From the NCBI GenBank assembly GCA_902825995.1, contig CADEDE010000004.1, forward strand, positions 3,977 to 67,976: a DNA stretch of 64,000 nt, written 5' to 3'. This DNA is from an uncultured Burkholderiales bacterium. Its GTDB lineage: Bacteria > Pseudomonadota > Gammaproteobacteria > Burkholderiales > Burkholderiaceae_C. A program made the translations under genes and the position numbers. Positions 3,555 to 34,318 of the stretch are shown here, piece after piece. How positions within the stretch are numbered: the stretch's first letter is position 1; each line of letters opens with the position of its first letter. The notes below the pieces were generated by a model. That model was given only the letters and a program-made list of their open reading frames with translations, searched no databases and had not been told where the DNA came from.

Positions 3555-4865
3555 ATGGATACGAGCGTGATGAAGGCGATCGGCGGCACGGCCGTTCTGG
3601 CCGTGGCTGGCGGCCTGCTGTGGCTGGGTTCGCAGCCGAATGCGGCCGTGGCGCAGACGCCGGCAGCGTCGGCCGTAGCCGTGCCACCGACAACCCCCGT
3701 GAGCACCGTCGCCGGCATGCCGGCGGTGCCCGATGCGCGCAACCTGTACAGCGAAACCGCCGCCGGCAAGATCGGCCCGGCGCTGGCCGGCGACCTGGCG
3801 CGCATCTACGTGCCCAACCTGCGCTCGAACGACGTCTATGTCGTCGATCCGCAGGCCATGAAAGTCGTCGATCGCTTCAAGGTCGGCATCGGCCCGCAGC
3901 ACATCGTGCCGTCGTGGGATCTGCGCACGCTGTGGGTCACCAACAATGCCGAGGGCCGCAGCGACGGCAGCCTGACACCGATCGACCCGCGCAGCGGCAA
4001 GCCCGGCAATCCGGTGAAGGTCGATGACCCGTACAACATGTACTACACGCCCGACGGCCAATCGGCGATCGTGGTCGCCGAGGCCAGGAAGCGCCTGGAT
4101 TTCCGCGACCCAAAGACGATGACCCTGCAGTATTCGATCGATGTGACCGACTGCCCCGGCGTCAACCACGCCGACTTTGCGATCGACGGCCGCTTCGCGA
4201 TCTTCACCTGCGAGTTCTCCGGTACGCTGGCGAAGATCGACCTGGTCGAGCGCAAGGTGCTCGGCTACCTGAAGCTGACGCTGCCGGCCACGCGGTTGAA
4301 GGAAACACCCGGCGCACCGCGAACGAAACCCGGCCAGGCCTGGGAGCCCGGCCAAACCGAGTTTTGCACCGTGACCAAGGGCATGCCGCAGGACATTCGC
4401 AGCTCGCCCGACGGCAAGCGTTTCTATATCGCCGACATGCATGCCGACGGCGTACACGTCGTCGATGGCGCCTCGTTCAAAGAGGTCGGCTTCATCGCCA
4501 CCGGCCTGGGCGCGCATGGCCTGTACCCGAGCCGCGACGGCAAGCGCCTGTACGTGGCCAACCGCGGCTCGCACAAGATCCACGGCTCACGCCTGGGCAA
4601 CGGCGGTGTCACGGTGATCGACTTCGCCAGCGAGAAAGTGGTGGCGCGCTGGGCCGTTCCCGGCGGCGGCAGCCCCGACATGGGCAACGTCAGCGCCGAC
4701 GGCAAGTACCTCTGGCTGGCCGCGCGTTACGACGACGTGATCTACCGCTTCGACACCGCCAACGGCGACGTGGCGCAGGTCAAGGTGGGCGCCGAGCCGC
4801 ACGGCCTGACGGTGTGGCCACAGCCGGGGCGCTACTCGCTGGGGCATACCGGCAACCTGCGTTGA
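3555..4865 (+). CDS. YVTN-type beta-propeller repeat protein (secreted)
   Basis: ATG 3555 followed by a signal-like segment (AIGGTAVLAVAGGLLWLG). Repeated blades with LYVxN / LWVTN / FYIADM / LYVANRGS motifs. Confidence 0.7.
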   Translation: MDTSVMKAIGGTAVLAVAGGLLWLGSQPNAAVAQTPAASAVAVPPTTPVSTVAGMPAVPDARNLYSETAAGKIGPALAGDLARIYVPNLRSNDVYVVDPQAMKVVDRFKVGIGPQHIVPSWDLRTLWVTNNAEGRSDGSLTPIDPRSGKPGNPVKVDDPYNMYYTPDGQSAIVVAEARKRLDFRDPKTMTLQYSIDVTDCPGVNHADFAIDGRFAIFTCEFSGTLAKIDLVERKVLGYLKLTLPATRLKETPGAPRTKPGQAWEPGQTEFCTVTKGMPQDIRSSPDGKRFYIADMHADGVHVVDGASFKEVGFIATGLGAHGLYPSRDGKRLYVANRGSHKIHGSRLGNGGVTVIDFASEKVVARWAVPGGGSPDMGNVSADGKYLWLAARYDDVIYRFDTANGDVAQVKVGAEPHGLTVWPQPGRYSLGHTGNLR

Positions 4866-5731
4866 TGGCCCAGGACAGCGGCGTGACCCCGTTGCTCGAC
4901 GCCTTCTGGCGCGCCGCCGCGTATTGCCTGCACCCGCGGGTGATCCTGCTGTCGCTGGCGCCGCTGCTGCTGGCCGGCGGGCTGACGCTCGCACTGGGCT
5001 GGTTCTATTGGGAGCCCGCCGTGGCGGGCGTGCGAGCGACGCTCGAAGCCTGGTCGTCGCTCGAGGTGCTGCTGAAATGGCTCGAGTCGATCGGCCTCAA
5101 TGGCTTGCGCGCATTGATCGCGCCCCTGATCGTGCTCGCACTGGCGCTGCCGCTGATCGTCGTGCTGTCGCTGTTGGTGGTGGCCTTGTCGATGGCCCCG
5201 GCCCTGGTGTCGCTGGTCGCCCGACGGCGCTTTGCCGAGCTCGAAGCCAAACGCGGCGCGGCGCTGTGGCAATCGGTGTTGTGGTCGCTCGGCTGCACGC
5301 TGGTTGCCGTTATCGCCCTCGTGCTCAGCCTCCCGCTGTGGTTCGTGCCGCCGCTGATCTTGTTGATACCACCGCTGATCTGGGGCTGGCTGACCTGCCG
5401 CGTGATGGCCTTCGACGTGCTGGCAGAGCACGCCAGCGCCGACGAGCGGCGCACGATCCTGCGTGAGCAGCGCTGGCCACTGCTGGCCATCGGTGTGGTC
5501 TGCGGCTACCTCGGCGCTGCACCGACGCTGTTGTGGGCGGTGAGCGCGGCAACCCTGATTTTTGCGCCGCTGCTGGTGCTGATATCGGTGTGGCTCTATA
5601 CGTTGGTGTTTGCCTTCGCGGCGCTGTGGTTCGCCCATTTCGCGCTGGCGGCATTGCAGCGCCTGCGACAATCGACGATGCCGGTGCCACCGGCTCCTCT
5701 TCAACCCATCGAAATACTGCCTCTGTCATGA
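4865..5731 (+). CDS. EI24/CysZ-like polytopic inner-membrane protein
   Basis: 288 aa, 6-7 hydrophobic helices, high GC3. ATG overlaps the previous stop by 1 nt. The family assignment is from memory of similar annotations and is tentative. Confidence 0.6.
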   Translation: MAQDSGVTPLLDAFWRAAAYCLHPRVILLSLAPLLLAGGLTLALGWFYWEPAVAGVRATLEAWSSLEVLLKWLESIGLNGLRALIAPLIVLALALPLIVVLSLLVVALSMAPALVSLVARRRFAELEAKRGAALWQSVLWSLGCTLVAVIALVLSLPLWFVPPLILLIPPLIWGWLTCRVMAFDVLAEHASADERRTILREQRWPLLAIGVVCGYLGAAPTLLWAVSAATLIFAPLLVLISVWLYTLVFAFAALWFAHFALAALQRLRQSTMPVPPAPLQPIEILPLS

Positions 5732-5798
5732 CCAACCCCAAGCTCACTTCGTTCGCAGCCCCCCAAGGGGGCGTCAGCACGCTTGGGGCGGCCCGGCG
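5729..5798 (+). repeat. Family-1 GC-rich hairpin element, copy A (intergenic)
   Basis: TGACCAACCCCAAGCTCACTTCGTTCGCAGCCCCCCAAGGGGGCGTCAGCACGCTTGGGGCGGCCCGGCG. The 7-bp stem is CCCCAAG (5761-5767) paired with CTTGGGG (5782-5788). Its TGA is the stop codon of the upstream CDS. Confidence 0.85.
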
Positions 5799-5807
5799 CG
5801 TACTGGC

Positions 5808-6602
5808 ATGAACTTCGGCCTGATCATCGTCGGCGACGAAATCCTCTCCGGCAAACGCCAGGACCAGCACCTGCCCAAAGTCATCGAACTGCTCGGCGCT
5901 CGCGGCCTGTCGCTGGCCTGGGCGCGCTATGTCGGCGACGACCGCCGGCTCATCACCGAAGCCTTGCGCCACGCTTTCGCCAGCGGCGACGCGGTCTTCA
6001 GTTGCGGCGGCATCGGCGCCACGCCCGACGATCACACGCGCCAGTGCGCCGCGGCGGCGCTCGGTGTGGCGCTCGAATTGCATCCCGAGGCCAAGGCCCT
6101 GATCACGCAGCGCATGCAAGACCGGGCGGCGGAAAAGGGCCTGCCCTTCGATGCCGATGCGCCCGACAACATCCACCGTCTGAATATGGGTGTATTCCCG
6201 GCGGGCGCCTCGATCATCGCCAACCCGTACAACCAGATTCCCGGCTTTACGGTTGGCGAGGTGCATTTCGTGCCAGGCTTCCCGGTGATGGCGCACCCGA
6301 TGATCGAAACCGTGCTCGACACCCGCTACCGCGCGCTGCACGGTTCGCTGCGCGAGGCCGAATACTCGGTGATCGTCTATGGGTCGATCGAGGCCGCACT
6401 GACGCCGCTGATGGAAGCCGTCGAGCGCGACCACGCCGGCGTGCGCGTGTTCAGCCTGCCCAGCGTCGATCACCCGGTGCATGGGCGGCACATCGAGCTC
6501 GGCGTCAAGGGCGGCGAAACCTTGCTGCCTGCGGCCTATGCCGCGCTGCGCGCCGGGCTGGCCGCCCTGGGCGCGCAGACAGGCCCCGAACTGGTGCGCT
6601 GA
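5808..6602 (+). CDS. CinA-like competence/damage-inducible protein (MoCF-biosynthesis domain)
   Basis: [19 protein letters not shown] and [14 protein letters not shown] motifs are typical of the CinA N-terminal domain family. Confidence 0.75.
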
Positions 6603-17118: not shown

Positions 17119-17619
17119 TCAGCCGCCCCGGCGCACGCGGCGCAACTCGTCGGCGATCAGCAGGGCGGCGCCCAGCGTGATGGCGCTGTCGGCGAGGTTG
17201 AAGCTGGGGAAGTACCAGCCGCGCCAATGCAGCTGGATGAAATCCACCACATGGCCGTGCAGCAGGCGGTCAACGACATTGCCCAGGGCCCCGCCCATGA
17301 TCATCGTGACCGCGAAGCAGAACAGTTTCTGCGTCGGATGGCGGTGCAGCATCCAGGCGATGAAGCCGGCCGCGACGATGCCCAGCGCGACGAAGAACCA
17401 GCGCTGCCAGCCCGCCGCGCCGGCCAGGAACGAGAATGCCGCGCCGCTGTTGTGCACGCGCACGAGATTGAAGAACGAGGTCACATGGCGGCTGTCGCCG
17501 AGCTGGAAATAACCCAGGATCAGGGTCTTGGTGAACTGGTCGAGGACGATGACCAACAGCGCCAGGCCGAGCCAGAGGGCGAGGCCGGGAGCGCCGGAGG
17601 AAGAGCGGGCCGCGCTCAA
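17119..17619 (-). CDS. lspA: Lipoprotein signal peptidase (signal peptidase II)
   Basis: [14 protein letters not shown] and [15 protein letters not shown] motifs. Start proposed at TTG 17619, overlapping the ileS TGA and giving 166 aa. An upstream ATG at 17673 would overlap ileS by 58 nt. Confidence 0.85.
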
Positions 17620-20549
17620 GCGATGCTGCGGACTTCGCCCGCGCCGTAGAGGTTGCTTGTACAACGCCCGCAAAGGGCCGGGTGCGCGGCGTCATGGCCG
17701 ACGTCGCTGCGCCAGTGCCAGCAGCGTTCGCACTTGGCGGCGGATGACGGTGTCACGGTGATGACCAGTGCAGCGCCGCACCGCAGCCTCGCCTGCGAAG
17801 TGATCAACACGAACTTCAGGTCTTCGCCCAGCGTGGCCAGCAGTTCATGGTCGGCCTCGTTCAGCGTCAGTGTGACTTCGGCTTGCAATGACGAACCGAC
17901 GCTGCCTTCGCTGCGCACCGCCTCGATGGCCTTGTTGACCTCGTCGCGGATGGTGCGGATGCGCTGCCACTTGGCGAGCAGCGCCGCATCGGGTGCGTCG
18001 AAACGCCAGAAAGTTTCGGTGAAGATCGACGGCGACTGGCCCGGCGCAAGCACCGGCCAGGCCTCCTCGGCCGTGAACGACAGGAACGGCGCCATCCAGC
18101 GCAGCATCGCGTGCGTGATCTGCCACAGCGCCGTCTGCGCCGAGCGGCGGGCGAGCGATTTCGGCGCGGTGGTGTAGAGGCGATCCTTCAGCACGTCGAG
18201 GTAGAACGCGCCCAAATCTTCGCTGCAAAAGAGCTGTAGCTTGGCGACCACCGGGTGGAACTCGAAGCGCTCGTAGTGGGCCAGCATTTCGGCCTGCAAC
18301 TCGGCCGCGCGCGACAGGGCCCAGCGGTCGATCTCGAGCATGTCAGCCACGGGCACGGCGTCGCGCCCGGCGTCGAAGTCGGCGATATTGGCGAGCAGGA
18401 AGCGCAGCGTATTGCGGATGCGCCGGTAGCTGTCGACCACCCGGGCCAGGATCTTCTTGTCGATCGGCGGGTCGCCGGCATAGTCGGTCGAGGCGCACCA
18501 CAGGCGCGCCACCTCGGCGCCCGGATCCTTGGCGAACTCGCGGATTTCGATGATGTTGCCGAGCGACTTGCTCATCTTGCGGCCCTGGCCATCGACCGTA
18601 AAACCGTGTGTGAGCAGGCCGCGATACGGTGCATGGCCTTCGAGCGCGCAGCCCAGCAGCAGGGCCGAATGAAACCAACCGCGGTGCTGGTCGTGGCCTT
18701 CGAGGTAGAGATCGGCTTCAGGGCCGGTTCGGTGGTGCCCGTCGGGATGCGAGCCGCGCAGCACGTGGAAGAAGGTCGAGCCGGAGTCGAACCAGACTTC
18801 GAGGATGTCGCTGCCTTTCGTATAGTCCGCAGCGTCTTTGGCACCGAGGATTTCTTCCGCAGTCACGCGACTCCAGGCCTCGACGCCGCCCCGCTCGACG
18901 ATATCCGCAGCACGGTCGAGTATGGCCATCGTGTCCGGATGCAGTTCGCCCGAATCCTTGTGCAGGAAGAAGGGCAGCGGCACACCCCAGCTGCGCTGGC
19001 GGCTGATGCACCAGTCGGGCCGGTTGGCGATCATGTCGCGCAGGCGGGCCTGGCCGTTGTCGGGGAAGAACGCGGTGGCGTCGATCGCCTCGAGCGCCAT
19101 TGCACGCAAGGTGCGCGGCGCCTTGTCCTTGGTGAAGACGCCCGCCGTTGACACATTTGCTTCGTCCATGCGGATGAACCACTGCGCGGCGGCGCGGTAG
19201 ATCACCGGCGTCTTGTGGCGCCAGCAATGCGGGTAGCTGTGGGTGATGGGCGAGGTGGCAAACAGGCGCCCGGCCTCGCGCAGCGCTTCGATGACGACCG
19301 GCACCGCCTTCCAGATATTCAGCCCGCCGAACAGCGGGAAGTCGGGTGCGTAGCTGCCGTGGCCCTGCACCGGGTTCAGGATTTGATCGACCTGCATGCC
19401 ATGCGCGGTGCATGAGTGGAAGTCATCCACGCCATAGGCCGGCGACGCATGCACGATGCCGGTGCCGTCGTCGGCGGTGGCGTAGTCGGCCAGATAGACC
19501 GGCGCGAGGCGGTCGTAGCCGGCGTCTATGTGCGCAAGGGGGTGGCGGAACAGGATGCCGCCGAGCTTCTCGCCCCGGGTCGTTGCGACCACATGGCCCT
19601 GCAGAGCGTAACGCCCGAGACATTTCTCGACCAGCGATGCCGCGAGCACGAGCTGCCCGCGCTCGGTGTGCACCAAGGCGTAGTCGAGTTCGGGATGGAG
19701 GTTGAGTGCCTGGTTGGCGGGAATCGTCCACGCGGTGGTGGTCCAGATCAGCGCAAAGGTTTCACCGACGATTTCAGGCAGACCGAAGGCTGCGGCCAGC
19801 TTGTCGGGCTCGGCGCACAAAAAGCCGACATCGAGCGTCTGCGATTTCTTGTCGGCATATTCGATCTCGAATTCGGCCAGCGACGAGCCGCAATCGAAGC
19901 ACCAATAGACCGGCTTCAGGCCGCGATAGACGAAGCCGCGCTCGATCACGCGCTTCAGGGCCCGCAACTCGCCGGCCTCGTTGGCGAAATCCATCGTGCG
20001 GTACGCATGCTCCCAATCGCCGAGCACGCCCAGGCGCTGGAAATCGGCCTTCTGCTGCGCGATTTGTTGGCTGGCGTAGGCCCGGCTCCTGGCCTGCATC
20101 TCGTCGCGGCTGAGCTTGCGGCCATGCGCCTTCTCGATCGCATTTTCGATCGGCAAGCCGTGGCAGTCCCAGCCCGGCACATAGCGCGCATCGAAGCCCG
20201 CCAGTTGCTTGGACTTGACGACCATGTCCTTCAGGATCTTGTTCACCGCGTGGCCGATGTGCAGCACGCCGTTGGCATACGGCGGGCCGTCGTGCAGGAC
20301 GAACAGCGGCGCACCGTGGCGCGCGTCGCGCAGCTTCTTGTACAGGCCTTGTTCGTTCCAATCCGCGATCCAGCCCGGCTCGCGCCTGGGCAAATCGCCG
20401 CGCATCGGAAACGGGGTGTCGGGCAGGTTCAGCGTAGCGCGGTAGTCGGGCCGGCAACTGCCGCCGGGCCGCCCCAAGGCCGTTGCGCTCCCCTCGGGGG
20501 ACGACGCCGTAGGCGTCCTGGGGCGGTCATTTGATTTCGGTTCGGACAT
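17616..20549 (-). CDS. ileS: Isoleucine--tRNA ligase
   Basis: 977 aa with HIGH ([11 protein letters not shown]), KMSKS ([10 protein letters not shown]) and a C-terminal zinc-finger pair (CERCWHW...CGRC). The N-terminus carries ~30 extra residues that include repeat copy B. Confidence 0.95.
20461..20529 (-). repeat. Family-1 element, copy B (inside the ileS 5' coding region)
   Basis: Minus-strand read: TGACCGCCCCAGGACGCCTACGGCGTCGTCCCCCGAGGGGAGCGCAACGGCCTTGGGGCGGCCCGGCGG. Translated as [23 protein letters not shown]. Confidence 0.85.
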
Positions 20550-20716
20550 GGTGCGGGTGCGGCGGGTGGCGTCTGGTGTTCGTGACGCCTGTTTCAGGCA
20601 CCGGCCTGATCGGGATCAAGCCAGTCGGTGGTTCGCGAGTGGAACCCGGCTAAATTCGATCCCGTGTGGTTTGCCGACACGTCGTCGTGCGCCAGCGCAG
20701 GAGATCGAGTCGAACC

Positions 20717-21547
20717 ATGCAAGCAACCATGCGGCAGATTCTACCGGTGGCCATCTGGATGCTGGCCGGGACGCCGTTGCCTGCGTGCGCGCAGGTGGAG
20801 GCTTCCCCGTCGCCGAGCGCGCGGCCGAACTTCGGAGGTGCGATCGGCCTGCAGTGGAGCAACGCGCCGCGGTACCAGGGCTCGAACTTGCGCGAAAACT
20901 CGTTGCAGCCGGGTATCTACCTGCGCTGGGGTCGTTTCTGGGTGGCCACGGCCGGCAATTTCGTGACCCGCCAGGACGGTGAGGTGCTGCGCGGTGTGGG
21001 TGCCGAACTGGTGCAGCGCGATGACCTGCGCGTGCGGCTCGGATTGCGCTTGGACCCCGGACGCAAGACCCGTGACAGCCCTGAACTCGCCGAACTCGAC
21101 GACATACGGCCGACGGTGCGCGCACGCCTGTCGGCGACCTGGCGTTTCAAGCCCGATTGGCAGTTGGGTACCGGATGGAGCACCGATGTGCTCGGCCGCC
21201 AGGGCGGGAGCCTGGTCGATCTGTCCATCTCGCACAGCATTCGCCTCAGCCAGCGCACGCATTGGTCGCTCGGCAGCAGCCTGTCCTGGGCCGACGAGCG
21301 CTACATGCTCGCCCGCTTCGGCATCAGCCCCGCGGCCGCTGCCCGCACGGGCCGGCCAGCCTATGAGCCAGGAGGCGGTTGGCGCGACGCCGCCCTGAAC
21401 ACGGAATTGCGCACCGACATCGATCGGCGCTGGTCAGTCTGGGCCGGTGCCAGCGTGAGTCGATTGCTTCGTCCGGCGCTGGCCAGTCCACTGACCCTGA
21501 AACCGACGCAAGTGGCGACCGGCGCAGGATTCGCCTGGCGATTCTGA
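20717..21547 (+). CDS. MipA/OmpV-family outer-membrane protein
   Basis: Signal peptide ending ACAQ, alternating beta-strand pattern and a terminal aromatic residue (FAWRF). Confidence 0.8.
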   Translation: MQATMRQILPVAIWMLAGTPLPACAQVEASPSPSARPNFGGAIGLQWSNAPRYQGSNLRENSLQPGIYLRWGRFWVATAGNFVTRQDGEVLRGVGAELVQRDDLRVRLGLRLDPGRKTRDSPELAELDDIRPTVRARLSATWRFKPDWQLGTGWSTDVLGRQGGSLVDLSISHSIRLSQRTHWSLGSSLSWADERYMLARFGISPAAAARTGRPAYEPGGGWRDAALNTELRTDIDRRWSVWAGASVSRLLRPALASPLTLKPTQVATGAGFAWRF

Positions 21548-21567
21548 TCCGACACGCCGGTGTGTCC

Positions 21568-22542
21568 TCAGGCGCGTCCCGGCTCGGCAAACCAGGCGCG
21601 CGCATCGGCACTGTCCTGCGCAATGCCTTCGCGCAAAGACGCCAAGCACGCGTAGATGCGCTCGTCGTGCAATTTGTGCAGCAGTTCGACCTTGACCACG
21701 TGACCGTAGGCACCATCGCGGCCGAGTTCGCCTGGCCAGTCCAGGCAATGCACCTCGAGCAGGATGCGCCCACTGGCATCGACCGTCGGCCGCCGGCCCA
21801 GGCTGGCGACGCCGGGCAAAGCTTGCGCAGCCAGGCCATGCGTGCGGGCCACAAAGATGCCCATCGCCGCGGGCGGATGGGGCAGGCGCAGGTTGAGGGT
21901 CGGGAAGCCCAGCTCGCGCCCGAGCCGGGCACCGTGCTGGACATGGCCGCTGATACTGTAGGGGCGGCCCAGCAGGGCCGCGGCGCGGACCATATCGCCG
22001 TTGGCCAAGGCCTCGCGCACGGTCGAACTCGATACGCGCTGACCATGCACTTCATAGCTTTGCATGCGCGCCACGTCGAAGCCGAGTGCGTCGCCGGCAG
22101 CGTCGAGCATGGCGTAGTCGCCGGCCCGCCTGGCGCCAAAGCGGAAGTCGTCGCCCACCAGCACGTAGCGCACGCCGAGGCCGCGCAGCAACACTTGCTC
22201 AATGAAGGCCTGCGGCGTCAACGCCGCCAAGCGTTCATCGAAGCGCAGCAGCACCGCCTGCTCGATACCGCAGCGTTCGAGTTCGGCGAACTTGTCGCGC
22301 AGCGTTGCGATGCGCGCCGGGGCGTCGGCAGAGCGACCCGCGGACCTGGCCCGGGCAGCGAAGAAATCGCGCGGATGCGGCTCGAAGGTCAGCACACAGG
22401 ATGGCAGGCCGCGGTGGCGGGCTTCGTTGATCAGCAAGGCCAGCATGGCCTGGTGGCCGCGGTGGACACCGTCGAAGCTGCCGATCGTGGCAGCGCAGGC
22501 CGGCGCCAGATCAGGATGGTGGAAACCGCGCAGGACTCGCAT
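21568..22542 (-). CDS. ribF: Bifunctional riboflavin kinase / FMN adenylyltransferase
   Basis: 324 aa (IGSFDGVHRGH, FEPHP, GFPTLNL, EVHCLD). ribF-ileS-lspA is conserved synteny. Confidence 0.93.
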   Translation of the reverse strand: MRVLRGFHHPDLAPACAATIGSFDGVHRGHQAMLALLINEARHRGLPSCVLTFEPHPRDFFAARARSAGRSADAPARIATLRDKFAELERCGIEQAVLLRFDERLAALTPQAFIEQVLLRGLGVRYVLVGDDFRFGARRAGDYAMLDAAGDALGFDVARMQSYEVHGQRVSSSTVREALANGDMVRAAALLGRPYSISGHVQHGARLGRELGFPTLNLRLPHPPAAMGIFVARTHGLAAQALPGVASLGRRPTVDASGRILLEVHCLDWPGELGRDGAYGHVVKVELLHKLHDERIYACLASLREGIAQDSADARAWFAEPGRA

Positions 22543-22600
22543 GAGCGCGATTATTGCGGCGCTGCCGGCGCCGCAGCGCTGAAACTCGCCGCTTCAGTCG

Positions 22601-22679
22601 GCGCTGGGCCGCTCCCGAGCCGACCGAGCGCCCCCTCGGGGGGGGCAGCCAGCCAAGCCAGCGTGGGGGCGGACATTCA
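22601..22679 (-). repeat. Family-1 element, copy C1 (intergenic hisA-ribF)
   Basis: Minus-strand read: TGAATGTCCGCCCCCACGCTGGCTTGGCTGGCTGCCCCCCCCGAGGGGGCGCTCGGTCGGCTCGGGAGCGGCCCAGCGC. The stem CCCGAG/CTCGGG is fully Watson-Crick. Confidence 0.8.
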
Positions 22680-22685
22680 GGCCAG

Positions 22686-22761
22686 CGCCGGGCCGCCCCA
22701 AGCGGCCTGAGTGCCCCCTCGGGGGGCAGCGAGCGCAGCGAGCGTGGGAGCGGATATTTCA
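22686..22761 (-). repeat. Family-1 element, copy C2 (its TGA is the hisA stop codon)
   Basis: Minus-strand read: TGAAATATCCGCTCCCACGCTCGCTGCGCTCGCTGCCCCCCGAGGGGGCACTCAGGCCGCTTGGGGCGGCCCGGCG. It lies 6 nt from copy C1. Confidence 0.85.
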
Positions 22762-23502
22762 GGCCTCGGCCAGTTGGTCGGCGCGCTGCTGGGCCGCCGC
22801 GAAATCGAGCGCGCCGGTGTAGATCGCACGTCCGCAGATCACGCCGTCAACGCCCTCGCCTTGGATCGCGCACAGGCGCTCGATATCGGCCATGCCGGCC
22901 AACCCGCCCGAGGCGATCACCGGGATCGTCAGCGCCTGCGCCAGCTTCAAGGTGGCCTCGATATTGATGCCGGTGAGCATGCCGTCGCGGCCGATATCGG
23001 TATAGATCACGCCTTCGACGCCGTAGTCCTCGAATTTCCTGGCCAGGTCGATGACCTCGTGCCCGGTGAGCTTGCTCCAGCCATCGGTGGCCACCTTGCC
23101 GTCCCTGGCGTCGAGGCCAACGATGATGTGGCCGCCGAAGGCGGTGCAGGCGTCGCGCAGAAAACCGGGGTTCTTGACCGCGGCGGTGCCGATGATGACG
23201 TAGCTCAAGCCGTCGTCGAGGTAGCGTTCGATGGTGTCGAGGTCGCGCAGACCGCCGCCGATCTGCACCGGAATTTGATCCCCCACCGCACGAACGATGG
23301 CCTTGACCGCCGACTCGTTGACCGGCTTGCCGGCAAAGGCGCCATTCAGATCCACCAGGTGCAGGCGCCGCGCACCGGCGGCGAGCCAGCGCCGCGCCAT
23401 CGCCGCGGGATCTTCGCCGAAGGTGGTGGCGGCTTTCATGTCGCCCTGTTCGAGGCGCACGCAGTGGCCGTCCTTGAGGTCGATCGCGGGTATCAGCAGC
23501 AT
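22759..23502 (-). CDS. hisA: ProFAR isomerase (1-(5-phosphoribosyl)-5-[(5-phosphoribosylamino)methylideneamino]imidazole-4-carboxamide isomerase)
   Basis: 247 aa ([30 protein letters not shown]). Confidence 0.95.
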
Positions 23503-23527
23503 GGTGGGGAATGGGGGAGAGGAACGC

Positions 23528-24187
23528 TCAGGGCTTCCATTGCAGGAAGTTGCGGTACAGCGTCAGGCCGTCGGCGGCGCTCTTCTCCGGGTGGAACTGG
23601 GTGGCAAAAATGTTATCGCGTGCCATCGCCGAGGTAAAGGGCGCACCGTAGTCGGTGAGGCCGGCACTGTGGCGCGCCTCCGACGGCTCGGCGTAGTAGC
23701 TGTGGACAAAGTAGAACCAGGCGCCGTCGGGGATGCCGGCCCAGAGCGCGTGGCGATGTTGGCCGTGGCGCGCCTGGCGCACGCGGTTCCAGCCCATCTG
23801 CGGCACCTTGTAGCGGCTGCCGTCGGGTTGCAGCCGGCCATCGAGCAAAAATTTCCGCACGCGCCCGGCGATCAGGCCCAGGCAAGGCGTGTCCTGCTCC
23901 TCGCTGTGGTCAAGCAGCATCTGCATGCCCACGCAGACGCCAAAAAGCGGCTTGTTGGCGGCGGCGTGCAGCACGGCATCTTGCAGGCCCGATTCGCGCA
24001 ATTCACGCATGCAATCGCGAATGCCGCCCTGGCCGGGCAGCACCACGCGCTCGGCGGCCATGACATCCTGCGCACGCTGCGTGATCAAGACCTCGACGCC
24101 GCTGCCCGCGGCCACATGCAGCACCGCCTGCGACACCGAGCGCAGGTTGCCCATGCCGTAATCGACGACGGCAACGGTTCTCGACAT
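23528..24187 (-). CDS. hisH: Imidazole glycerol phosphate synthase, glutaminase subunit
   Basis: 219 aa class-I GATase (LPGQGG, GVCVGMQ, QFHPEKS). Confidence 0.95.
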
Positions 24188-24191
24188 GGCG

Positions 24192-24785
24192 CTACAAGGT
24201 TCCCTTGGTGGACGGAATCACACCCACGCTGCGCGCGTCGATCGCCAGCGCCATGCGCAGCGCGCGGCCGAAGGCCTTGAACACCGTCTCGCACTGGTGG
24301 TGGGCGTTGGCGCCCTTCAGGTTGTCGATATGCAGCGTGGCCAGGGCATGGTTGGCAAAACCTTGGAAGAATTCGTAGGTGAGCTGGGTATCGAAGCCGC
24401 CGACCATGCCGCTCTTGAACGGCACTTCCATGTGCAGGCCCGGCCGCCCCGAAAAATCGATCACCACGCGCGACAGGGCTTCATCCAGCGGCACATAGGC
24501 GTGGCCATAGCGCGTGAGGCCGGCCTTGTCGCCCACGGCCTTGGCAACGGCCAGGCCCAGCGTGATGCCCACGTCTTCCACCGTGTGGTGGCCATCGATG
24601 TGCAGATCGCCCTGGGCGTCGATCTCGATATCGATCAGGCCATGCCGCGCCACCTGATCCAGCATGTGGTCGAAAAAGCCGATGCCCGTGGCCAGCTTGG
24701 CGACGCCCGTTCCGTCGAGATTCACCCGCGCGCGGATCTGCGTTTCCTTGGTATTGCGCTGGACTTCGGCGATACGTTGGGTCAT
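24192..24785 (-). CDS. hisB: Imidazoleglycerol-phosphate dehydratase
   Basis: 197 aa ([23 protein letters not shown]). Confidence 0.95.
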
Positions 24786-25862
24786 CTAGAGGCTCTCTTT
24801 CAGGGCATCGATCATCAGCGCATTTTCCTCGGGAGTGCCCACCGTCAGGCGCAGGCAGTTGGCCAGCAGCGGGTGCAGCGCCTCGACATTCTTCACCAGC
24901 ACGCCGCGCTGTTTCATGCCGGCGAAGGCGCGCTTGGCGTCGGGCACGCGCACGAGGATCATGTTGGCTTCGCTGGGATAGTGTTTTACGCCGGGCAGCG
25001 CCTGGAGCAGCGCTTGCAGGCGATCGCGCTCGCTGCGGATTACCGCCGCCTGGCGCGCGTACTCGTCGGCATGTTCGAGCGCGAACAGCGCCGCCTCGCA
25101 GTTCAGCACGCTGACGTTGAACGGCGGACGCAGCTTGTCGAGCTCGGCGATCAATTCGCGCCGGCCGATCAGGTAGCCGATACGCACGCCAGCCAGGCCG
25201 AATTTGCTCATCGTGCGCATCAGCAACACATGCGCGTGGCGTTGCAATCGCGCCAGCGAGTCGCGCGCGGCAAAGGGCTGGTAAGCCTCGTCCATCACCA
25301 CCAGGCCCGGCGCGGCCTCGATGATCGCGTCGATGGCCGCGTCGTCCCACAGATTGGCCGTGGGGTTGTTCGGATAGGCCAGATAGACGATCGCCGGGCG
25401 GTGCTCGCGCACGGCGGCCAGCATGGCGGGCAGGTCGAGCTCGAAATCCGGCGTCGTCGGCACACCGACGAATTTCAGGCCCTGCAATTGAGCCGCCATC
25501 GCATACATCACGAAGCCCGGCAGCGGCGCGAGCACCGTGGCGCCGGACACATCGCAGGCCAGCGCCAGCAGCGAAATCAGCTCGTCGGAGCCGTTGCCGA
25601 GCATGATTTCGTTGCCCTCGGGCATCCGCGCATGGCGGGCCAATGCGGCGCGCAAGACATCGCTGCGCTCGGCCGGGTAGCGGTTGAGCGCCACCTCGCC
25701 CAGGCGTTCGCCCAGGGCCTTGCGCAGCGGCGCCGGCAGCGCGAACGGGTTTTCCATCGTATCGAGCTTGACCATGCCCGCGCTGGGTTGCACGGCATAG
25801 GCGTGCATGGCCTGGACATCCTGGCGCAGCACGCGCGCCATGCGTTCGGCCAGCAGGCTCAT
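24786..25862 (-). CDS. hisC: Histidinol-phosphate aminotransferase
   Basis: 358 aa from ATG 25862 (MSLLAERMARVLRQDV) with MSKFGLAGVRIGY carrying the PLP lysine. The ATG overlaps the vapC TGA (ATGA). Confidence 0.93.
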   Translation of the reverse strand: MSLLAERMARVLRQDVQAMHAYAVQPSAGMVKLDTMENPFALPAPLRKALGERLGEVALNRYPAERSDVLRAALARHARMPEGNEIMLGNGSDELISLLALACDVSGATVLAPLPGFVMYAMAAQLQGLKFVGVPTTPDFELDLPAMLAAVREHRPAIVYLAYPNNPTANLWDDAAIDAIIEAAPGLVVMDEAYQPFAARDSLARLQRHAHVLLMRTMSKFGLAGVRIGYLIGRRELIAELDKLRPPFNVSVLNCEAALFALEHADEYARQAAVIRSERDRLQALLQALPGVKHYPSEANMILVRVPDAKRAFAGMKQRGVLVKNVEALHPLLANCLRLTVGTPEENALMIDALKESL

Positions 25863-26308
25863 TCCGAAAGCCCGATCTGCTGCGGCGTGGACTTGAAAGG
25901 GTTCACGATATCGACGCCGTCGATCTGCTGGCCGTGCTGCAGGTCTTCGCTGAGCAGGTGGCCGCAGCCCTGCTGCTGCGCGGCGGCAACGATCAGCGCA
26001 TCCCAATAGTTCAGATCGAAGCGGCTCTCGATGGCCCAGGCCGATTCCACCGTCGCGTGATCGATCGCCCACGGCTGCCAATGCTGGTAGCGGCGCACCT
26101 CGGCGCGTGCATCGCCGGCCGCGATCGCGTTGCTGAACTTCTTGCGCGCGTTGCTATAGAACTCGTTCAGAACCTGGGTGCTGATGCGCCCGCACTGGTG
26201 CTGCCAGCAATAGGCCACCCAGGCCCGTGCACCGGCTTGCTTGGCGGGCTCGCGCGGATCGAAGCAATACAGCAGCACATTGGTATCGACGAAGACCGTA
26301 CGGCTCAC
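25859..26308 (-). CDS. vapC: PIN-domain ribonuclease toxin (VapC-like)
   Basis: 149 aa with the acidic PIN quartet in context (FVDTNVLLY, VLNEF, YWDALIVAAA, LLSEDLQHG). The start overlaps the antitoxin stop by 4 nt. Confidence 0.85.
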   Translation of the reverse strand: MSRTVFVDTNVLLYCFDPREPAKQAGARAWVAYCWQHQCGRISTQVLNEFYSNARKKFSNAIAAGDARAEVRRYQHWQPWAIDHATVESAWAIESRFDLNYWDALIVAAAQQQGCGHLLSEDLQHGQQIDGVDIVNPFKSTPQQIGLSE

Positions 26309-26538
26309 CGCGCACCCCGCGTGTACATCTCGTCGCGCGTGAGGTAGCGCCCTTTGCTGGGCCCCCAGCTCTTGAACTCCAGGGCCTCGCGCATGGCGCG
26401 CTCGTAGGCATCGTTGCGGTGCATCTTTTCAGCCACCAGTTCGCCGACCAGGCGCGACACGCTGGTATTGCGCCGCGCGGCTTCCATGCGCGCCCAGTCG
26501 GCGGCGCCGTCTTCCATCGTGATAGTCACGTTTTTCAT
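26305..26538 (-). CDS. vapB: Antitoxin partner of VapC (ribbon-helix-helix-like)
   Basis: 77 aa. MKNVTITMEDGAADWARMEAARRNTSVSRLVGELV fits a beta-strand followed by helix-helix. It lies immediately upstream of, and overlapping, the PIN gene. Confidence 0.75.
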   Translation of the reverse strand: MKNVTITMEDGAADWARMEAARRNTSVSRLVGELVAEKMHRNDAYERAMREALEFKSWGPSKGRYLTRDEMYTRGAR

Positions 26539-26547
26539 GGCGCGTCT

Positions 26548-26605
26548 TTCGTGGCAATGTCACTGGTTTCGTGTTCCACTATTTTCGTGTTGCACGAACT
26601 TCGTG
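26548..26605 (-). promoter_or_regulatory. Candidate vapBC operator / internal promoter region
   Basis: The 67-bp, relatively AT-rich gap between the hisD stop and the vapB ATG holds four TTCGTG direct repeats (26548, 26568, 26584, 26600). The last forms the 13-bp palindrome CACGAACTTCGTG (26593-26605). Confidence 0.35.
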
Positions 26606-28389
26606 TCAACCCGTCAATGGCAACACCATCTCGCGCTCGCCGTCATTCACCTTGCCGGTGTAGGCAAACCCAAAGCCTTCGTAGAAAGCCCCCACCGGGT
26701 TCTCGGGCAGGTGCGACAAAGCAATCTGTGCCACGCCCATGCGCCTGGCCTCGCCGATCAACCAGCGCATCGCCGCCTGGCCGTGGCCTTGGCGCTGGTA
26801 ACGCGCATCGATCATCAGGCGCCAGATATAGAGCTGGTCGGCCGGCTCGTCGGGATCGCGGCGCGCATCCCAGAGCAACAGGAAGCCGACGGGCTCGCCG
26901 TTCGAGTACAGGCCCATCGGCCGGCCGGCCGGCTTGTACGCGGCCTGCGCGAGGGACTTTGCATTCGTCGCGACGAAACGCGCCTGCTCGGGCGTGATGC
27001 TCAGCGCGATGAGTGAGTCGACATCGGCGTCGCGCACCGGCCGCACTTCAAAGTGCGGCGGCGCCGCGGCTACCGGCACCGCGCCGAGCCGCATTTCGGC
27101 CGCGCGCGCGTGGGCTTGCAGGCCCTCGCCATAGGCCAGTTCGGCGGCAATCGGACCCAGCGTATTGGCGCCCGCCGCGCTCACCTCGATCAGGCTCGTG
27201 CGCTTTTGAAAGTCATATACGCCCAGCGGCGATGAGAAGCGCGCCGTGCCCGAGGTCGGCAGCACGTGGTTCGGGCCGGCGCAATAGTCGCCCAGGCTTT
27301 CGCTGGTGTAGGCCCCGAGAAAAATCGCGCCGGCATGCTTGAGCAGCGGCTCCCAGCGCTGCGGCTCGGCACTCGACACTTCGAGATGCTCGGGCGCGAT
27401 GCGGTTGCTAAGCGTGCAAGCTTCTTCCATCGAGCGCGTGAGGATCAGCGCGCCGCGGCCTTCGAGCGAGGCGCGGATGATTCCTTCGCGCGGCAGCGTC
27501 GGCAACAGCCGTTCGATGGACTCGCGCACCGCGTCGAGATAGGCTGCATCGGGGCACAGCAGCAGGCTCTGCGCCAGTTCATCGTGCTCGGCCTGCGAAA
27601 ACAAATCCATCGCCACCCAGTCGGGTGGCGTCGTGCCATCGGCAATGACGAGGATTTCGCTGGGGCCGGCGATCATGTCGATGCCGACCTGGCCGAAGAC
27701 ATGCTTCTTCGCGCTGGCCACATAGGCGTTGCCGGGGCCGGTGACCTTGTCCACGCGCGGGATCGTTGCCGTGCCATAGGCCAGCGCGGCGATCGCCTGC
27801 GCGCCGCCGATCGTGAAGGCGCGCGTGATACCGGCCACATGCGCGGCGGCGAGCACGAGGGCATTCTTCTCGCCGCGCGGCGTCGGCACGACCATCACGA
27901 TCTCGCCCACGCCCGCCACTTGAGCTGGCACCGCATTCATCAACAGGCTCGACGGGTACGCCGCCTTGCCGCCCGGCACATAGATGCCCACGCGATCCAG
28001 CGGCGTGACCTTCTGGCCAAGCAGGCTGCCGTCTTCGTCGCGGTAGCGCCACGATCGGCCGCAGGCATCGAGCTGGCGCTCGTGGTAGTTGCGGATTCGC
28101 GCGGCCGCCGCTTGCAGGGCATCGCGCTGCGCGGGGGTGATCGAGCCAAAAGCCGCGCGCATTTCGTCGCGCGTGAGCGTCAGCGCCGCCATCGACGCGG
28201 CCGCCAATGCATCGAAGCGCGCAGTGCACTCGAGCACGGCGGCATCGCCGCGGGTGCGCACGTCGGCGAGGATTTGGACCACGCGCGATTCGATCTCACC
28301 GTCGGCCTGCGCCGACCAATGCCGCAGGCGCGCGAATTCGGCCTCGAAATCGGCGTTGCGGGTGTCGAGGCGGCGCAGCTTCATTTGGC

Positions 28390-28393
<4 letters not shown>
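26606..28393 (-). CDS. hisD: Histidinol dehydrogenase fused to a C-terminal GNAT acetyltransferase domain
   Basis: 595 aa. Residues 1-~436 are HisD ([15 protein letters not shown], ending [10 protein letters not shown]). An 11-aa linker ([11 protein letters not shown]) is followed by a 148-aa GNAT fold ([29 protein letters not shown]). The reading frame is continuous with no stop. Confidence 0.85.
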
Positions 28394-30760
<2,367 letters not shown>

Positions 30761-30826
30761 CGTGGGCGGATTGTAGGTCGTCGGCTGTCGTACATTGCGG
30801 CGCTGCCCCCGAAGAGGATCTTGTCG

Positions 30827-31420
30827 ATGAGTACAACGCAGATTGTCACCTGGGTCGTTCTGGTCACGCTGGCCCTGTGGCTGCTGGCCGCCTACAACCG
30901 CCTGGTGCGCAGCCGCAACGAGATTGCCAACGCCTTTGCGCAGATCGACGTGCAATTGAAGCGCCGCTACGACCTGATTCCGAACCTGGTCGAAGTGGCG
31001 CGCAAATACGTGCAGCACGAACGCGACACACTCGAAGCCGTGATCGCAGCGCGCAACACGGCCAAGAGCGCCGGCGACGCAGCGCGTGCCAAGCCGGCCG
31101 ACGCGGCCCGCATCGGCGCGCTGGCCGGCGCCGAGGGCGCGCTGGCCGGGGCGATGAAGCAGCTGGCCGTCGTCGTCGAGGCCTATCCCGAACTGAAGGC
31201 CGACGCCACGCTGCGCGAATTGAGCGAAGAACTCGGCCACACCGAAAACCGCATTGCCTTCGCGCGCCAGGCCTTCAACGACAGCGTGCTCGACTACAAC
31301 AATGCCGCCCAGCAGGCACCGACCAATATCGTCGCCGGCCTGTTCGGCTTCAAGCAGGCAGCGCTGCTCGAAGCGACCTCGAGCGACGCTGAGCGCAGCG
31401 CGGTCCGCGTCAATCTGTAG
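30827..31420 (+). CDS. lemA: LemA-family protein
   Basis: 197 aa with an N-terminal TM helix, then YNRLVRSRNEIANAFAQIDVQLKRRYDLIPNLVE and YPELKAD. Confidence 0.88.
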   Translation: MSTTQIVTWVVLVTLALWLLAAYNRLVRSRNEIANAFAQIDVQLKRRYDLIPNLVEVARKYVQHERDTLEAVIAARNTAKSAGDAARAKPADAARIGALAGAEGALAGAMKQLAVVVEAYPELKADATLRELSEELGHTENRIAFARQAFNDSVLDYNNAAQQAPTNIVAGLFGFKQAALLEATSSDAERSAVRVNL

Positions 31421-31434
31421 GCGCCACCGGCACG

Positions 31435-33510: not shown

Positions 33511-33556
33511 GCGCACTCAGTGCGAAGGCCCGATCCGCAATGACCGCAGGTTCGCA

Positions 33557-34318
33557 TCAACTCCTGATCTTGTAGCCCGTGGCGAGCAGGCGCAACGCAA
33601 TCGCCGACACCATGATAAAGCTGGCGCCGACCACCCCCAGACTCAGCCACGGCGAGACGTCGCTGGCGCCGAAAAAGCCGCGCCGAAAACCGTCGATCAT
33701 GTAGAAAAACGGGTTCAGGTGCGACAGGCCCTGCCAGAAGCCGGGCAGCGAATGAACCGAATAAAACACGCCCGACAAAAAAGTCATCGGCATGATCAGG
33801 AAATTCTGGAACGCCGCCGTCTGGTCGAACTTCTCGGCCCACAGCCCCGAAATCAGGCCCAGGGTGCCGAGCATGCCGGCCCCGAGCACGGCAAACACGA
33901 CGATCCACCACGGCTCGGCAAATTGTGCCGGCGCAAACCACACCGTGACCGCGAACACGCCCACGCCCACCGCCAGCCCGCGCACCACGCTCGCGCCGAC
34001 ATAGGCCGCGAACCAGGCCCAGTGCGACAAGGGCGAGACCAGCAGAAATACCAGGTTGCCGCTGATCTTGCTCTGGATCAGCGAGCTGCTGGTGTTGGCG
34101 TAGGCGTTCTGCAGCACGCTCATCATCACCAGGCCCGGGATCAGGAAGCTGGTGTAGCCCACGCCAGGGAAGACCTGCACATGGGCTTCGAGCACATGGC
34201 CGAAGATCAGCAGGTAGAGCACGGCGGTGAGCACCGGCGCCGCGACAGTCTGCACGCTGACCTTCCAGAAGCGCAGGATTTCCTTGTTGAACAAGGTGCG
34301 CGCGCCAGCGAGGTTCAT
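33557..34318 (-). CDS. ABC-2 type transporter permease
   Basis: 253 aa from ATG 34318 (MNLAGARTLFNKEILRFWK) with six TM helices. The start overlaps the ATPase stop. Confidence 0.85.
   Translation of the reverse strand: MNLAGARTLFNKEILRFWKVSVQTVAAPVLTAVLYLLIFGHVLEAHVQVFPGVGYTSFLIPGLVMMSVLQNAYANTSSSLIQSKISGNLVFLLVSPLSHWAWFAAYVGASVVRGLAVGVGVFAVTVWFAPAQFAEPWWIVVFAVLGAGMLGTLGLISGLWAEKFDQTAAFQNFLIMPMTFLSGVFYSVHSLPGFWQGLSHLNPFFYMIDGFRRGFFGASDVSPWLSLGVVGASFIMVSAIALRLLATGYKIRS

Follow-up and report, generated by a model that had tools for sequence, protein, structure and literature searches.

The Beta-proteobacterial repeat element (BRE) was named by Hot et al. 2011 (BMC Genomics 12:207; PMC3110155). 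In the portions of that paper on which we draw, it is described as a repeat of about 75-91 bp with a G+C content of 69%, which is mostly intergenic, with some copies overlapping the ends of genes or sitting wholly within coding sequences, and which forms tandem arrays whose copy number differs between strains; its hosts include Bordetella, Polaromonas, Delftia, Acidovorax, Rhodoferax, and Azoarcus (PMC3110155). BRE is also listed in a review by Delihas 2011 (PMC3184786), together with about nine genes that contain internal BRE inserts. In this study, we analyzed the repeat that surrounds a short complementary motif at positions 5761-5788 of a 64,000-nt stretch of DNA from an uncultured Burkholderiales bacterium (contig CADEDE010000004.1, positions 3,977 to 67,976 of the forward strand; this whole stretch is referred to as the window). 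The repeat occurs seven times in the window, its copies are on sequence grounds members of BRE, and the structure that is conserved among its relatives consists of two hairpins, designated P2 and P3, rather than of the stem that had been proposed for the motif.

Rickettsia palindromic elements (RPE), which are about 100-150 bp long, are like BRE in being palindromic and in inserting in frame into genes that are left intact. They are unrelated to BRE in sequence and in host, which is an alpha-proteobacterial obligate intracellular bacterium, and the likeness is one of behavior only. Mycobacterial interspersed repetitive units (MIRU), which are not known for a covarying hairpin, are reportedly 40-100 bp long, often arranged in tandem (VNTR, or variable-number tandem repeats), and located inside operons, and their short open reading frames (ORFs) are said to overlap the flanking genes' stop and start codons, in the account attributed to Supply and colleagues, of 1997. 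The mini-ORF of one window copy (copy A) and the enrichment of ATG and stop codons throughout the family behave alike; sequence similarity between MIRU and BRE is absent. In the parts of the literature used here, MIRU are named as a comparison in PMC3110155, and RPE, after Ogata et al. 2000, are cited in PMC3733652 and PMC3184786.

Results

Family membership of the window copies

The motif at 5761-5788 reads CCCCAAGGGGGCGTCAGCACGCTTGGGG, i.e., CCCCAAG, a 14-nt segment (GGGGCGTCAGCACG), and CTTGGGG, and belongs to copy A. Searching the window with the relaxed pattern CCC[AG]AG-loop-CT[TC]GGG gave exactly seven copies (A, B, C1, C2, F, D1, and D2), and the seven copies, their loop sequences, and the A:T, G:T, and G:C states of one stem position, as listed in an earlier note on this DNA, all proved to be correct. 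A longer pattern matched the window seven times against 0.00 expected from 100 dinucleotide shuffles, a sequence profile also returned seven copies and none beyond, and an unfiltered covariance model gave seven hits at 51-66 bits, with no other above 19 bits. On the minus strand at 4636-4690, within a coding region upstream of copy A, the covariance model has a weak match (19.4 bits, E = 0.044), which could be a decayed BRE relic or a chance similarity.

A pattern scan of a genome collection, in which the variable stem position was left free on both sides, yielded at least 119 loci, on which the family-wide counts in this study rest. These loci, which come from Comamonadaceae, Alcaligenaceae, the Roseateles/Ideonella group, Burkholderia, Zoogloea, Thiobacillus, and others, hold 150 pattern matches and 179 profile matches. 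Between 146 and 150 copies from about 100 genomes were analyzed, namely 146 in a MAFFT alignment (A3), 150 in a covariance-model alignment (A5), and 148 as distinct pattern-derived copies. From 5' to 3', the element of ~80 nt comprises an (A)TGAC(C/G)..CCCCA box, a variable segment, GCC-CCCC(G/A)AG-GGGGC, the segment that had been regarded as a loop, and CT(T/C)GGG(G)CGGCCCGGCG, followed by a few more bases.

Four published BRE sequences (PMC3110155, List S1) match the profile of this family on the reverse strand, with E-values from 1e-12 to 2e-7, and align colinearly with copies A, C2, and F. Because of this profile match and colinear alignment, the window copies are, as judged from their sequences, members of BRE. 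The remaining properties of the published element are also found in the window. Its units are about 78-89 nt long, with exact insertions of 81 nt (B, D1, and D2) and 78 nt (F), the G+C content of their P2-P3 part is 0.68-0.81, and the seven copies per 64 kb include a head-to-tail pair, C2-C1, with a spacing of about 83 nt. Copies A and C1/C2 occupy intergenic positions, the 5' ends of hisG and ileS hold F and B, respectively, and an M48 peptidase gene contains D1 and D2. The best homologues of the isoleucyl-tRNA synthetase (IleRS) encoded in the window, with up to 86% identity, are from Rubrivivax, Rhizobacter, and Burkholderiaceae, and the pattern matches listed in the wider scan fall in Burkholderiales and related orders, which is a beta-proteobacterial host range. 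The 5' ends of the window subfamilies, TGAC(C/G)..CCCC or TGAGCGCCCCC, differ from the Bordetella type, which is flanked by T/A runs; nothing sets the window copies outside the family.

A search of the whole window against Rfam at gathering scores returned no match, and a search of the C1/C2 region with E-values up to 10 returned a best E-value of 0.079 and 17 bits, against a gathering score of 50. A full-text literature search with conserved 11-14-mers retrieved no paper on the element, and a BRE-specific secondary-structure model is absent from the consulted passages of Hot et al. 2011 (PMC3110155) and Delihas 2011 (PMC3184786).

The stem CCCCRAG:CTYGGGG

The earlier note had proposed that CCCCRAG pairs with CTYGGGG across a loop of variable sequence, and that this stem is kept by compensatory and wobble changes. 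In copy A, the two arms, CCCCAAG at 5761-5767 and CTTGGGG at 5782-5788 (+), are indeed complementary, and among the seven copies the variable position is A:T in copies A (5762-5787, +) and F (29046-29072, -), G:C in copy C1 (22614-22640, -), and G:T in copies B (20473-20498, -), C2 (22697-22723, -), D1 (32351-32375, +), and D2 (33056-33080, +). In the larger alignment, by which the note itself had let the stem stand or fall, covariation does not support it. Among the 148 distinct copies, the share of paired cells is 94.2%, and shuffling of the partners gives 94.3 +/- 0.2%; the observed share is attained in 368 of 500 shuffles, the covariation score is 0.085 versus 0.087 in shuffles, and compensatory change in the seven-pair stem is seen in neither A3 nor A5.

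The variable pair itself is G:T in 99 copies, A:T in 29, G:C in 4, A:C in 4, and another combination in 12. As the G/A on the 5' side and the T/C on the 3' side vary independently (Fisher's p = 0.10, in the non-compensatory direction), the G:C pair of copy C1 is not a compensatory event. Variants of CTTGGGG, i.e., CTTCGGG, CTTGAGG, CTTGAAG, and CTTAGGG, break the proposed stem and are uncompensated in CCCCRAG, giving 12 unpaired cells at one pair. The stem is an incidental complementarity of P2's C-run to P3's G-run, two hairpins with which it competes, and the series of A:T, G:T, and G:C pairs is a small-sample artefact, a coincidence between two conserved boxes.

It is very improbable that the functional structure is nonetheless this 7-bp helix closing a variable loop, whether it forms by itself or joins the variable helix described below in an H-type pseudoknot or switch, of which it would be stem 1. 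Its covariation does not exceed that of shuffles, its G/A and T/C vary independently, the CTTGGGG variants that break it are compensated in CCCGG(C)G, and the competing P2 hairpin shows compensatory C:G to U:A changes of its own, all of which speaks against such a structure even though its two segments are complementary in 94% of the cells, the order S1a - X - S1b - X' has the topology of an H-type pseudoknot, and a U opposite G or A would suit a segment with two alternative partners. Also in its favor, the predicted minimum free energy (MFE) fold uses the stem in 36 of the 148 copies, copy F among them.

Hairpins P2 and P3

The element does possess a conserved hairpin with compensatory changes, as had been claimed, and the helices concerned are those of P3 and P2. 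The supposed loop differs between copies, which agrees with the earlier description, and is actually the 5' arm of the lower P3 helix. Its last 7-9 bases are complementary to the bases directly 3' of GGCCCGGCG, as in GTTTCGC...GCGAAAC, ATTCGCGC...GCGCGAAT, and CCCCCCGG...CCGGGGGG. In this register 78% of the lower P3 pairs are Watson-Crick, compared with about 28% in the neighboring registers, and all four Watson-Crick types occur at 8 of 8 pairs, with 41-76 doubly changed cells per pair. Taken as one structure, P2 and P3 are 91.2% paired, against 74.1% after shuffling, and none of 500 shuffles reaches the observed value. The decisive columns are conserved, ungapped sequence, and the MAFFT alignment A3 shows the same picture as A5.

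In copy A, P3 extends from 5774 to 5806 (+), according to both the MFE fold of this copy and the covariation in the family. Its lower, variable stem pairs TCAGCACG (5774-5781) with CGTACTGG (5799-5806). In its upper, conserved stem CTTGGG (5782-5787) has CCCGG(C)G (5792-5798) as its partner; this part contains T.G wobbles at 5783:5796 and 5784:5795, a bulged C5797, and the apical loop GCGG (5788-5791). The P2 mini-hairpin, to which MFE and covariation likewise point, consists of GCCCCC (5758-5763), the loop CAA (5764-5766), and GGGGGC (5767-5772) on the same strand. The predicted MFE fold of copy A is composed of P2 plus P3, without the proposed stem, and the variable A/G that had been placed in that stem (5765 in copy A) is a loop base of P2.

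Throughout the family, the upper P3 joins CTTGGG to CCCGG(C)G around an apical loop of four or five bases (NNGG). The start of this loop is variable, being GC in 106 copies, AGC in 17, AC in 13, and something else in others. One pair of this stem changes from G:C to C:G in seven copies and to A:U in one, and two further pairs each have two doubly changed copies. The compensated variants are CTTCGGG...GGCCGGGCG (G:C to C:G) and, with G:C replaced by A:U, CTTAGGG...GGCCTGGCG, CTTGAGG...GGCTCGGCG, and CTTGAAG...GGTTCTGCG; they come from loci L020, L098, L064, L005, and L047 and were found with the profile or the model, not with the pattern. P2 has the general form CCCCC-(C/G/A)RA-GGGGG, and its basal pairs covary (C:G in 118 copies and U:A in 9), with GCC...GGC changing to GATC...GATC; in a few copies a G:C pair has become A:U, U:A, or C:G.

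The T/C of CT(T/C)GGG covaries with the N of GGCCC[N]GCG, the combinations being T:G in 122 copies, T:T in 13, C:A in 7, C:G in 4, and T:A in none (p = 2.7e-9). The T.G wobble of the upper hairpin is thus exchanged for C.A and not for a Watson-Crick pair. An exchange of U.G for C.A is wobble-isosteric in rRNA and is typical of positions that need wobble geometry. Seven copies combine CTCGGG with GGCCCAGCG, among them copy C1 (22602-22641), in which C.A replaces the T.G wobble, and copies at L034, L036, L045, L047, and L115; T never goes with A. This combination could be the mark of a single subfamily.

The 5' region forms a strong hairpin, P1, in some subfamilies, including types II and III and that of copy B, which has GAC on both flanks and the P1 hairpin GACGCC-TAC-GGCGTC. 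A universal 5' hairpin was considered and rejected, as P1 is absent from other subfamilies, including copies A and F. From the compensatory changes in its helices, we conclude that the element folds as a single strand at some stage.

Strand, orientation, and reading frame

The proposed stem had been read as evidence for a structure that works on one strand. The 3' hairpin agrees with this idea. P2 and P3 together are more stable on the strand on which the element starts with TGA (TGA-first) in 139 of 148 copies (-31.6 versus -28.3 kcal/mol), owing to the two conserved T.G wobbles and the bulged C in the upper P3; one of these wobbles is fixed by the search pattern, and the other is free and is T:G in 122 of the 148 copies. 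The rest of the element does not share the preference. Isolated non-Watson-Crick pairs in the variable stem are of the A.C type in 21 cases and of the G.T type in 12, for the 5' half the opposite strand gives the better fold in 92 copies versus 17, and the energies of the whole element are about equal on the two strands (-46.7 versus -45.9 kcal/mol).

All seven window copies have the same orientation as their flanking genes, which confirms the bias that the earlier note had seen. In the wider sample, the coding strand of the flanks was called from the G+C content at codon positions, a test for which the window served as validation; with up to two calls per copy, 150 of 243 calls (62%, p = 3e-4) are co-oriented with the element and 93 (38%) are antisense. 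Most copies are located between or within genes of the same strand, with 49 (+,+) and 28 (-,-) contexts versus 5 convergent and 3 divergent ones. The candidate copies that lie inside genes in a stop-free frame number 11 in sense and 8 in antisense orientation.

The edges of the element are rich in start and stop codons. Copy A as a whole (5728-5811, +) extends from ATGA to ATGA, between a CysZ/EI24-family gene and a MoCF_biosynth (CinA-like) gene. Its left TGA (5729-5731) is the stop codon of the upstream gene and its right ATG (5808-5810) is the start codon of the downstream gene, while its left ATG opens a 27-codon ORF that spans the element exactly and is ended by the right TGA. Among 115 copies, the 12 nt left of the 5' C-box include ATG in 58 cases (14.5 expected), TGA in 55 (13), TAA in 16 (1.3), and TAG in 16 (3.4). 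Read from the left ATG, the frame stays open across the element in 59 of 60 copies, and in 37% it stops no more than 25 nt past the element, versus 7% for other frames. A conserved BRE-encoded peptide was considered and rejected, as all three frames are used (PPEG, PPRG, and PQGG readings).

These observations bear on the idea that BRE is a cis-acting RNA, transcribed TGA-first as part of operon mRNAs, whose hairpins would stabilize or process the message and whose short ORF would keep the translation of the flanking genes coupled, in a manner that resembles proposals for MIRU in mycobacteria and for REP/BIME (repetitive extragenic palindromic sequences and bacterial interspersed mosaic elements) in enterobacteria. 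We consider it unlikely, though not negligible. The co-orientation in the window and in the family, the predominance of same-strand contexts, the steadier 3' hairpin on the TGA-first strand, and the MIRU-like codons at the edges, of which the ORF of copy A is the clearest case, are what this idea would predict, whereas the antisense share of the flank calls, the presence of in-frame copies in both orientations inside genes, the use of all three frames, the want of any preference for G.U over A.C in the variable stem, and the better folding of the 5' half on the other strand all speak against it. So does the published Northern blot signal of BprJ1, the one BRE transcript detected experimentally (PMC3110155), which belongs to the BRE at 3605317-3605401 of B. 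pertussis Tohama I and is listed on the reverse complement of the TGA-first orientation. The strand assignment of BprJ1 is uncertain, because the BRE entries of List S1 that were inspected are all marked '+' and because the tables of that paper disagree on the orientation of the flanking gene BP3396, given as '<' in Table 1 and as '>' in Table S2 (PMC3110155).

There is next to no likelihood that ordinary intrinsic (Rho-independent) termination, or a set of unrelated chance palindromes in G+C-rich DNA, accounts for the hairpins. They are G+C-rich, and in copies A and C2 they follow stop codons, as terminators would; yet a T-run after P3 is absent from all window copies, and the 10 terminator-like sites in 20000-34000 do not coincide with any of the six copies located there, two results by which we rule out an intrinsic terminator. 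Copies are also located within genes and upstream of start codons, a convergent gene pair is seldom their context (5 of 179 copies), and the number of motifs expected by chance is 0.

Insertion, tandem arrays, and host genes

The gene at 31435-33510 (+), which encodes an M48 peptidase, contains D1 (32317-32397, +) as an exact in-frame insertion of 81 nt (27 codons) and D2 (33022-33102, +) as a second in-frame insertion of 81 nt. D1 and D2 differ in one base over about 89 nt, and their flanks are unrelated. All 9 of 9 aligned M48 homologues (61-81% identity) are without the two 27-residue segments, which match D1 and D2 exactly. In the DNA of the closest aligned homologue (L120:990-1090 and 1600-1720), the empty sites read CTGCTGCTG-GCCAAC and CTGCTGCTC-GGCGAC, where the hyphen marks the junction; both filled sites carry CTGCTNNTG-AGCGA, and each insert begins with an AGCG that is also found after the insert. 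This suggests that the element inserts where the target looks like its own end, either with the help of microhomology or through a short core site. The target sequences in the M48 gene are near-identical, CTGCT(C/G)(T/C)TG-AGCGA(T/C), and encode Leu-Leu-Leu and Ser-Asp on the two sides of the junction. A protein that is identical to the 691-residue M48 ORF, both insertions included, is present in the protein collection from an NCBI source (P0121).

Copy B (20448-20528, -; 81 nt) lies in frame in the N-terminal extension of IleRS (ORF 17616-20549, -). IleRS homologues have shorter, variable N-terminal extensions. As no start codon occurs between copy B and the conserved DYRATLNLP motif, copy B is most likely translated. 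Copy F (29024-29106, -) occupies the ATGA junction of murA (29103-30476) and hisG (28390-29106) and is in frame through to HisG, of which it forms a 26-residue N-terminal extension. The starts of the Pfam domains in IleRS and HisG are shifted by about 27 residues, and IleRS, HisG, and the M48 peptidase, which are housekeeping or conserved proteins, all carry repeat-derived segments of 26-27 residues that are rich in Pro, Gly, Ala, and Arg. In the tandem pair, the first unit, C2 (22675-22761, -), starts at the TGA stop codon (22759-22761) of a His_biosynth-family gene (22759-23502, hisA/hisF-like), and the second, C1 (22591-22679, -), lies upstream of ribF (21568-22542, -). The genes of the window were assigned from Pfam scans of the neighboring ORFs and from their translations.

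Arrays of four units are found in L023 and L081. Head-to-tail units with periods of about 78-87 nt make up entire short contigs, such as L023 (a 375-bp Achromobacter contig), and parts of longer ones, such as L081:2506-2797 and L020:4586-4929, and in L117 each 87-nt unit is an exact ATG...TGA ORF with the next ATG immediately after it. Arrays of this kind probably cause breaks in short-read assemblies. Copies originate through insertion and through tandem amplification, and they persist at gene junctions, or inside genes when the reading frame stays open.

Many copies are bordered by short direct repeats, e.g., CTGTCATGA and CTGGCATGA in copy A (5720-5731 versus 5803-5811), GGCCTGAA on both sides of copy C2 (22754-22766 versus 22673-22684), GGTCATGA in L037, and GGACTGAG in L078, with others in L001 and L086. 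The repeats are imperfect and often overlap the 3' arm of the variable stem, and in copies that have them the internal 5' arm is complementary to the left flank, too. We considered a target-site duplication of fixed length, or else an internal 'guide' with complementarity to the target; the repeats are absent from most copies and their offset is variable, and the idea is kept as a lead only.

Discussion

We favor, with a probability of about 0.6, the reading that BRE is a non-autonomous repeat whose conserved hairpin is a recognition structure for an amplifying or processing machinery. BRE is a non-coding repeat, rich in G+C and ~80 nt long, which has multiplied both inside and between the genomes of Burkholderiales and neighboring orders, with an architecture consisting of a 5' C-rich box, P1 in some subfamilies, the small C5/G5 hairpin P2, and the long hairpin P3. 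The upper part of P3, with its two T.G wobbles and bulged C, is conserved in sequence, and its lower 7-9 bp are free to vary provided that complementarity is kept. By analogy with REP and its associated transposases (RAYT), the ends of IS200/IS605, and attC sites, the conserved hairpin may be recognized as a folded single strand, and where a copy is transcribed its hairpins might yield stable small RNAs such as BprJ1.

The systems that provide this analogy also differ from BRE. REP/REPIN sequences and BIMEs are, like BRE, short and abundant G+C-rich intergenic hairpin repeats, and REP/REPIN are recognized as folded single strands in which imperfections of the stem mark one strand, which is a further likeness. 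In contrast, BRE lacks the terminal GTAG/CGTC tag of the REP palindrome of 20-40 bp, does not consist of two REPs in inverted orientation, has about twice the length, and is made of three modules, and whereas REP is normally extragenic, BRE often lies in frame inside genes. The consensus of the copies analyzed here has no GTAG tag, their units are direct and not inverted repeats, and a GACG...CGTC hairpin (P1) is found in one subfamily only, that of copy B. No gene for a RAYT, a Y1 HUH transposase that REPs typically flank, was detected near the BRE copies of the at least 119 loci, a result that is still compatible with a single distant copy. Integron attC sites resemble BRE in having short conserved boxes around a central stem that is variable yet complementary, and in the extrahelical bases and mismatches that select one strand. 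They differ from it in spacing and genomic context, and the window contains no GTTRRRY core, cassette array, or integrase. Nor is the element built like a MITE (a miniature inverted-repeat transposable element), as its sole inverted repeat (CCGCCCCAAG / CTTGGGGCGG) is internal and its flanking repeats, of 3-9 nt, are not fixed in length.

Several observations weigh against the model of a repeat with a recognition hairpin. Clustering of 673 ORFs from the at least 119 loci revealed no recurrent neighbor gene, whether transposase, recombinase, or other, and no clear terminal inverted repeats were found. The flanking direct repeats, of 3-9 nt, vary in length, and those matching in at least 7 of 8 positions border 16 of 115 solo copies, versus 4.7 expected, at an offset from the core that varies. 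As for the structure, A5 was fitted to the P2+P3 model, and pair counts made on it lean towards P2 and P3; in a repeat family, moreover, covariation counts are inflated by the shared descent of subfamilies. Folding of both strands in silico, a check that the earlier note had recommended, gave heterogeneous MFE structures for the seven copies and predicted energies no better than those of dinucleotide shuffles (z from -1.8 to +0.4). Finally, the near-identity of the conserved boxes across orders could equally well reflect a host function.

A more specific proposal, which we regard as doubtful, is that the upper P3 is a specific recognition site for a protein or ribonucleoprotein, in a structured single-strand element that has a dedicated partner, and that the freely covarying lower stem and the direct repeats reflect copying or targeting, for instance insertion at sites like the end of the element, as at the two M48 sites CTGCTNNTG-AGCGA. 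The recognition site would comprise the two T.G wobbles, the bulged C, the NNGG loop, and the exchange of U.G for C.A. If the proposal were true, BRE would represent, throughout a whole bacterial order, either a mobile or amplifying element of a new, hairpin-dependent class or a new and widespread cis-regulatory RNA.

The window adds no new kind of element, as BRE, its tandem arrays, and its copies inside genes have been known since 2011. The value of the analysis lies in a correction, as seven copies suggested a compensatory series that about 150 copies expose as a coincidence, and what had been taken for the loop concealed the real helix. The architecture of P2 and P3 and the covariation within it, for which there is no matching Rfam family, were worked out here, and they provide a testable structural model of BRE, composed of a small C/G hairpin and a long hairpin that combines a conserved, wobble-containing top with a freely varying base. 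For annotation, the consequence is that the IleRS, HisG, and M48 peptidase proteins of the window contain segments of 26-27 residues that are derived from the repeat.

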